Origin: an uncultured Gemmatimonadales bacterium
GTDB taxonomy: Bacteria; Gemmatimonadota; Gemmatimonadetes; Palauibacterales; Palauibacteraceae
NCBI GenBank assembly: GCA_963783385.1
Contig: CAWANJ010000001.1
Span: forward strand, 256,001 to 320,000
Length of the DNA stretch: 64,000 bases
Reading direction: 5' to 3'
Position numbers and translations under genes: made by a program. Shown in pieces: positions 33,319-33,617 of the stretch (its first letter is position 1; the number at the start of each line of letters is the position of its first letter). The notes below the pieces were generated by a model, which was not told the DNA's origin, made no database searches, and saw nothing but the letters and a program-made list of their open reading frames with translations.

Positions 33319-33510
33319 CTAGCGGGTTTCCTGCTCCTTCCAGAAGCGCTCGAACTCGGCGTCCAGGTTCTTTCGGTCCCGGCGCATCTCGCGCTCGAAG
33401 GCATCCCGTCCGGCTTCGATCGCCGTGCGGATCCAGTTGCGCGTGATCCTGGGGTGCCGCGCCTCGGCGTCGTCATCCCGATCGGCGGGCTGCAGGTTCG
33501 CCTCCATCAT
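33319..33510 (-). CDS. Small charged hypothetical protein (63 aa), candidate NrdR-regulon member
   Basis: [72 protein letters not shown]; dedicated upstream promoter. Confidence 0.75.
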
Positions 33511-33565
33511 GGTGCTGACCTCCCGTGTGGGGGCGGCTCTCCTCCACCGCTGGGACATTCTCTTC

Positions 33566-33617
33566 CCCCAACATGTTGGGGTATCCGCAGCATAAGCCCC
33601 CCACATGTTGCGGTCAA
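33566..33617 (-). promoter_or_regulatory. sigma70 promoter (TTGACC-17-TATGCT) overlapped by tandem NrdR-like boxes
   Basis: Perfect palindrome CCCCAACATGTTGGGG (33566-33581) and CCCCCACATGTTGCGG (33598-33613), 32 bp apart; mirrors the nrdJ promoter. Confidence 0.8.

Follow-up and report, generated by a model that had tools for sequence, protein, structure and literature searches.

The NrdR regulon is among the most conserved regulons (PMC5343134). The consensus of the NrdR box is given in PMC4009431; six of its positions are highly conserved (PMC13584703) and serve here as its definition, a box period of 31-32 bp, corresponding to a 15-16-bp linker, is the optimum spacing (PMC12051234), and D15, R17 and the RRRR stretch are the NrdR residues named for DNA contact (PMC9110341). 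The tandem operators of S. coelicolor nrdRJ and nrdAB and of E. coli nrdAB, nrdHIEF and nrdDG, as presented in PMC13584703, PMC9110341 and PMC12051234, consist of two 16-bp boxes that agree at the six positions, are separated by a 15-16-bp linker and overlap a sigma-70-type promoter. The NrdR proteins of S. coelicolor and E. coli can also bind boxes of other organisms (PMC13584703). According to a preprint (bioRxiv 10.1101/2025.03.28.645925), E. coli and P. aeruginosa have pairs three helical turns apart at RNR operons alone, and the mechanism is proposed to be limited to RNRs; the non-RNR candidates topA in Pseudomonas and dnaA in Shewanella have a single box and their regulation is disputed (PMC4409342; bioRxiv 10.1101/2025.03.28.645925). 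In E. coli, DnaA has binding sites upstream of nrdA and nrdD (PMC11317965).

The locus described here belongs to an uncultured Gemmatimonadales bacterium (Palauibacteraceae; GCA_963783385.1, 3.54 Mb, 92% complete). Its operator is of the textbook NrdR class and its target is not, the product being an uncharacterised and lineage-restricted protein of 63 residues. As in the tandem operators of RNR genes, two 16-bp boxes match the six positions, have a 15-16-bp linker and overlap a sigma-70-type promoter, in a genome whose NrdR carries D15, R17 and RRRR; unlike in those operators, the gene behind them stands alone, does not encode an RNR and belongs to no known family. With topA and dnaA, which are linked to DNA metabolism, the gene shares the condition of a non-RNR target carrying NrdR boxes, but here the pair is complete, canonical and conserved across the family. 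The combination of DnaA and NrdR boxes at one promoter, as in E. coli nrdAB and nrdDG (PMC11317965), recurs in putative form, with the difference that the array is co-oriented, helically phased, located just 3' of box 2 and common to nrdJ and the small gene.

In the open-access literature we found no earlier description of this gene or regulon, nor of a small-protein regulator of a class II RNR. We do not claim to be the first to place paired sites before a non-RNR gene, because Rodionov and Gelfand reportedly named, in 2005, candidate NrdR sites before dNTP-salvage and replication genes, with further non-RNR candidates. NrdR regulons are regarded as consisting almost entirely of RNR operons; a canonical pair kept throughout a family on a separate gene would be a clean counter-example. 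It would also narrow the context of the 63-aa protein to dNTP supply and replication: a two-site switch shared with the only RNR points to a helper or a brake of DNA replication that has not been described before, in a family that is narrow and uncultured and for a protein whose function is putative.

Promoters of the 63-aa gene and of nrdJ

Both genes lie on the minus strand of the window (the whole 64,000-nt stretch of DNA that was analysed), and their features are collected in Table 1. A preliminary description, made from the sequence alone, had claimed that the regions 33566-33617 and 56560-56611 share one architecture, that one box is a perfect palindrome and that the small ORF has a GGAGGT ribosome binding site. 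Re-reading bore this out: the layout is TTGACC-17 nt-TATGCT for the 63-aa gene and TTGACC-17 nt-TAGACT for nrdJ, each with 16-bp boxes 32 bp apart, the palindrome is box 2 of the 63-aa gene, and box 1 of the same gene overlaps the final two bases of the -35 hexamer. The two 52-nt promoters are identical at 42 positions, with 11 of the 16 linker bases in common, as compared to 31/52 for the next best stretch of the 3.54-Mb genome.

Table 1. Features of the locus, with their positions in the window
Feature	Position	Strand	Basis or remark
Pyruvate kinase gene (pyk)	28737-30194	-	
orf111 (P0076)	30313-30648	-	no Pfam match; found in 57/61 genomes
Promoter-like site TGGAAC-17-TACAAT for downstream ispG	33266..33294	-	consensus match only
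63-aa gene (P0001)	33319..33510	-	open reading frame, single copy
Shine-Dalgarno GGAGGT of 63-aa gene	33518..33523	-	sequence read
NrdR box 2 of 63-aa gene, perfect palindrome over inferred start site	33566..33581	-	sequence read
-10 hexamer TATGCT of 63-aa gene	33589..33594	-	consensus match
NrdR box 1 of 63-aa gene, set between the hexamers with some overlap; 32 bp to box 2	33598..33613	-	
-35 hexamer TTGACC of 63-aa gene	33612..33617	-	consensus match
nrdJ, class II RNR, with TSCPD domain and C-terminal Cys motif	53611..56182	-	Pfam RNR domains
Co-oriented DnaA-box-like repeats in nrdJ leader, three within one mismatch	56504..56555	-	motif scan
nrdJ promoter, same -35/-10 layout; boxes 56592-56607 and 56560-56575	56560..56611	-	

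All six defining positions (C4, A6, A8, T9, T11 and G13) are matched by both boxes of the 63-aa gene. The six-position consensus occurs as 259 single boxes genome-wide, and pairs at a spacing of 30-33 bp number 2 vs. 0.08 expected; these are the promoters of the 63-aa gene and of nrdJ only. A position weight matrix (PWM) trained on orthologues from other genera only gave these two pairs scores of 46.3 and 42.0, far above all others in the genome (next, 14.2). No Rfam family was found in the window, and therefore no known riboswitch in the leader of either gene.

NrdJ is the sole RNR found, since neither a class I small subunit nor NrdD (class I/III RNR) was detected in this 92%-complete genome. 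No profile match to an ATP-cone was obtained in NrdJ, which would thus have no built-in activity switch. With respect to a same-genus genome, one extra base near 55164 splits nrdJ into two frames, and ispG also has one extra base, near 32444; considering that nrdJ and ispG are normally essential, both are probably assembly errors. The repressor that the preliminary description presupposed is present and intact: nrdR is located beyond the window, scores above the TIGR00244 cut-off and is free of stops, and its translation contains both CxxC motifs, RRRR, D15 and R17. In fact, nrdR was found in 60 of 61 genomes, including all those without the 63-aa gene.

The NrdJ proteins of this order have an acidic coiled-coil insert of variable length in the stretch from the catalytic barrel to the TSCPD domain (53611-54400 in the window, minus strand). 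Co-occurrence of this coiled coil with the 63-aa gene was considered and rejected, the insert being present both with and without the gene. Just downstream of nrdJ, at 53224-53412 (minus strand), there is a Lys/Ala-rich histone-like ORF with KKAAPKKK repeats, also present in G018, for which no Pfam match was obtained.

Conservation of the gene and of its operator

P0001 had 28 strong matches among 61 genomes, this genome included; 13 weaker rows (E 0.0019 or worse) were left out of the orthologue count. A 64-sequence profile found one copy each in 59 of the 145 genomes of the order, all belonging to one family (Ca. Palauibacterales-related): this genome and 58 of the 113 others in the family, with none in the 31 genomes of the sister family. 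Phylum-wide, a 27-sequence profile was positive in 9 of 401 genomes, all within the same family. The protein had been presented as unannotated; it is in fact already in a public protein collection, where members of its cluster are named "hypothetical protein" of Gemmatimonadota or Ca. Palauibacterales in the source records. Orthologue lengths cluster at 62-75 aa, apart from one of 50 aa (shorter start call).

Among 16 within-genus pairs, two were saturated; 13 of the 14 computable ones gave dN/dS values of 0.036-0.231, the exception being a near-identical pair with 0.56. The median of deep pairs was 0.52, which we attribute to the saturation of GC-rich third positions. Conservation, on which the preliminary description had made its proposal depend, and low dN/dS within genera together argue that the 63-aa ORF is a real gene under purifying selection. 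No paralogue was found in the genome, no relatives were found in viral contigs by a single-query search, and no fused form was found; the sole longer match, P0020, has an extra N-terminus that looks like a mis-called start.

The operator is conserved as well. A box pair lies within 450 nt upstream of 28/28 orthologues, with a spacing of 32 bp in 22 and of 31 bp in 6. C4, A8, T9, T11 and G13 are invariant in 56/56 boxes and A6 is kept in 55/56, an invariance that is partly selected, because the boxes were located with a PWM made from the boxes of this window. L030, examined as a possible orthologue, was rejected since it carries a stop and no boxes; as one non-orthologous control locus, it scored -9.1/-1.8 with the search PWM. 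The strict pair pattern was positive in 37/37 family genomes (1-4 sites each), whereas the reversed pattern, used as a control, gave 0 matches in 61 genomes. At consensus level, the -35 hexamer stands at box 1 in 18 of the 28 orthologue promoters and 22-35 bp further upstream in 9 (7 with the -10 on box 1 and 2 with the promoter just upstream), and in 1 none was found. The box pair is kept at the 63-aa gene also in loci with a shifted promoter or a different downstream gene.

The predicted protein

P0001 consists of a variable, disordered N-terminus (residues 1-18) followed by a conserved core. AlphaFold2 predicted this core as a single helix spanning residues 24-62, with pLDDT of 86-97 by block. 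The core motif is H/R-P-x-I/L-T-x-x-W...R-x-A-F-E-x-E-M-x-R-x-R...L-D-x-x-F-x-x-F-W, in which P20, W26, F38, E39, E41, M42, R44 and R46 are invariant in 28/28 orthologues and are spread over several helix faces. The preliminary description had called the product acidic and helical. The helix agrees with the prediction; acidity is confined to the variable N-terminus, and the core is net basic in 28/28 orthologues (+1 to +9). An insertion of 1-3 residues is tolerated near residue 47, and this would fit a pair of short docking helices better than a single rigid coiled coil. Cys is absent in 28/28 orthologues, so that there is no redox-active Cys pair of the NrdH, glutaredoxin or thioredoxin type. 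Considering its small size and the absence of Cys, the product should be neither an enzyme nor a redox partner.

P0001 had no match at E 0.1 in the Pfam, NCBIfam and PHROGs profiles, and when the same profiles were compared with 27 family members only scattered matches of 1-2 members were obtained, at E 0.006 or weaker. Foldseek gave no match for the single-helix model, the best Z in the fold search was 4.3, among generic helices, and the ESM Atlas search returned no usable match. A single match in a PDB sequence search (E 0.53) was taken as chance. Complex prediction with a same-genus NrdJ and the peptide core gave a score of 0.00, uninformative either way.

DnaA-box-like arrays

The preliminary description mentioned neither the repeats described in this section nor the ancestral adjacency to nrdJ and the third box pair reported below. 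GTGGA(A/T)AA-type repeats, which we take to be DnaA boxes from their consensus, follow box 2 in 24/24 leaders of the 63-aa gene outside this genus. In these 24 loci 56 repeats are forward and 0 reverse, as compared to 0.03 per locus in shuffled loci, and their offsets (near 5, 26, 37, 48, 58 and 69) follow a 10.5-bp phase, placing them on one helix face. The nrdJ leaders have the array in 21/32 cases, that of this window included, where the cluster is the only one of 3 or more such repeats found in the genome by motif scan. The 63-aa gene has no array in this genus (0/4, this window included), which would have lost it there while keeping the NrdR pair. The motif makes these repeats putative DnaA boxes, to which DnaA may bind; the GTGGA core is also repeated between dnaA and dnaN. 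In the dnaA-dnaN intergenic region of G000:C6 (near L197), GTGGA-core repeats are followed by an AT-rich trinucleotide-repeat stretch, a putative oriC.

Neighbourhood, gain and loss

The 63-aa gene stands directly behind nrdJ in 8/20 loci, plus 2 more, and within about 9 kb of it in several others. The position next to nrdJ is ancestral, and the 20-kb gap in this window is probably derived. A separate promoter-like site precedes ispG, marking the 63-aa gene as a unit of its own, and a terminator-like hairpin follows the stop codon in 15/23 loci outside this genus, against 3.5% of shuffles. In this genus no such hairpin was found (0/4), and the gene is followed immediately by the promoter-like site of ispG. 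Between the HD gene upstream and the promoter of the 63-aa gene no terminator was detected either, and read-through may for this reason blur the control here. In 14/23 loci outside this genus (L007-L029) a short motif of the AGCGAAGCG type is present 3' of the stop codon, about 70-90 nt before the terminator; it is possibly a conserved 3' UTR element.

Nine family genomes among the 61 searched have no 63-aa gene, and 7 of them have one pair only, at nrdJ; G019 has one extra pair match at an unrelated gene start, and in G036 a second pair lies at the edge of a contig, so that the gene is probably missing through truncation. In G313 the order is nrdJ-boxes-gene-ispG, whereas in the single-contig G019 and G033, of the same genus, nrdJ abuts ispG with neither gene nor boxes between them. 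The 63-aa gene and its box pair were therefore lost together. On a tree of the NrdJ proteins of 27 genomes, whose midpoint root falls on the sister family, gene presence requires 4 changes, 3 of them forced by well-supported branches, which we tentatively read as a gain at the base of the family and three losses. The gene is absent or rare in four genera (0/5, 0/3, 0/12 and 7/36) and is dispensable.

Discussion

The reading we favour, with a probability of about 0.7, is that NrdR directly controls the gene of a helix that binds a protein and serves dNTP supply or replication. From its promoter, the 63-aa gene is very probably a direct target of NrdR (and DnaA), expressed with the sole class II RNR. 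Considering the biochemistry of NrdR, repression would in all likelihood be exerted by dATP/ATP-loaded NrdR and released when dNTPs fall, and the operators point to co-induction with nrdJ. As long as dATP is plentiful, an NrdR tetramer would occupy both boxes and block RNA polymerase; when dNTPs fall, NrdR would let go and the 63-aa gene would be transcribed along with nrdJ. In most genera the phased DnaA-like array just downstream would link both promoters to the replication cycle too. The anatomy of the product suggests a docking helix that would fold upon binding a protein of dNTP supply or of replication.

As the single most likely partner we tentatively propose NrdJ, which the helix might stabilise or whose output it might tune. 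Several points favour NrdJ: no other RNR was found, it lacks an ATP-cone, its gene is the neighbour in the ancestral arrangement and its promoter follows the same logic. Since the 63-aa gene would be induced together with NrdJ, a stabiliser or a delayed brake seems more plausible than a plain inhibitor. This partner is disfavoured by the separate transcription unit, by the three losses and by the fact that no matching change is seen in NrdJ. Moreover, for a subunit of NrdJ co-transcription would be a simpler arrangement than a separate promoter. In yeast, Sml1 and Spd1 are small, largely disordered proteins that bind the RNR large subunit by a short helix and are destroyed when dNTPs are needed. 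The 63-aa protein is likewise small and in part disordered, with a helix that hypothetically binds NrdJ; unlike with Sml1 and Spd1, to which no sequence link was found, its gene should be induced when dNTPs are needed. That it is their bacterial counterpart, a dedicated small-protein regulator of class II RNR encoded on the chromosome and serving as the activity switch of an ATP-cone-less NrdJ under joint NrdR and DnaA control, is possible but doubtful.

With the same regulation, the helix might instead bind DnaA, the replisome or a division protein, pausing initiation or division while dNTPs are short, a brake for which Sda and SirA are checkpoint-style precedents. This alternative is a live one; we rate it as rather unlikely, although outside this genus the array is steadier at the 63-aa gene (24/24) than at nrdJ (21/32), the gene has its own promoter and terminator, and no Hda-like second DnaA homologue was found above the cut-off in this genome. 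In fact, this genus lost the array at the 63-aa gene and yet kept the NrdR pair, no likeness to known DnaA regulators was found in sequence or fold, and the ancestral position adjoins nrdJ and not the origin.

A net basic core with invariant Arg could also mean that the protein feeds back on NrdR, as anti-repressor or co-repressor, or binds nucleic acid through a basic face, and a regulon member tuning its own repressor is a common circuit. We regard this as distinctly unlikely, considering that NrdR is present in all genomes without the gene and that the Arg residues are interspersed with invariant Glu and aromatic ones, which does not resemble a plain DNA-binding basic region.

There is a slim chance that the boxes serve the downstream ispG, or that an nrdJ promoter was duplicated and the 63-aa gene is a passenger of it whose function has nothing to do with dNTPs. 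ispG lies within 700 nt downstream in 20/28 loci, and in G019 and G033, where it is right behind nrdJ, it could be read from the nrdJ promoter; the linker bases shared by the two promoters are such as a duplication would leave, and the recruitment of NrdR pairs to orf111-pyk too (see below) indicates that the regulon can drift. However, the boxes are kept with no ispG downstream in G005, G011 and G022, a terminator separates the genes in 15/23 loci, and a promoter-like site of its own precedes ispG in this and several other genera. The six NrdR positions, moreover, outlasted promoter relocation and deep divergence. Finally, that a regulator other than NrdR binds these palindromes is hardly credible, even if the strict pattern occurs in just 4/24 sister-family genomes though 23/24 have nrdR, because all six defining positions are matched at canonical spacing and the same pair stands at nrdJ in every family genome whose nrdJ promoter was looked at.

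Further NrdR box pairs

Two genomes have a fourth box pair each, L150 (G008:C37:14522) and L126 (G015:C34:16399), for which no recognisable target gene was found. In other genera, orf111-pyk lies downstream of a third canonical NrdR pair, which has a TTGAC-type promoter of its own, in 11/30 loci, and a pair stands directly before pyk in two genomes without orf111 (L113, L119, L141, L145, L128 and L129 are among these loci); the third pair is absent from this window and genus. Judging from these sequences, the family would hold two exceptions to the proposal that paired boxes are restricted to RNRs, namely the 63-aa gene and orf111-pyruvate kinase. Pyruvate kinase can phosphorylate dNDPs, and the third pair may thus tie the output of NrdJ to the formation of dNTPs, even though this genome has ndk.

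No clear PDB fold was found for orf111. Its model bears a weak likeness to tail assembly chaperones of phages (Foldseek viral E 0.035, TM 0.51; Atlas neighbours alike), yet orf111 is a conserved chromosomal gene. In the orf111/pyk leader a GC-rich, near-palindromic motif is located about 40-60 nt in, in 15/15 loci shown (L111-L119, L121, L124, L128, L129, L141 and L145), and is often followed by a second shared motif. The near-palindrome may be an RNA element or the site of another protein.
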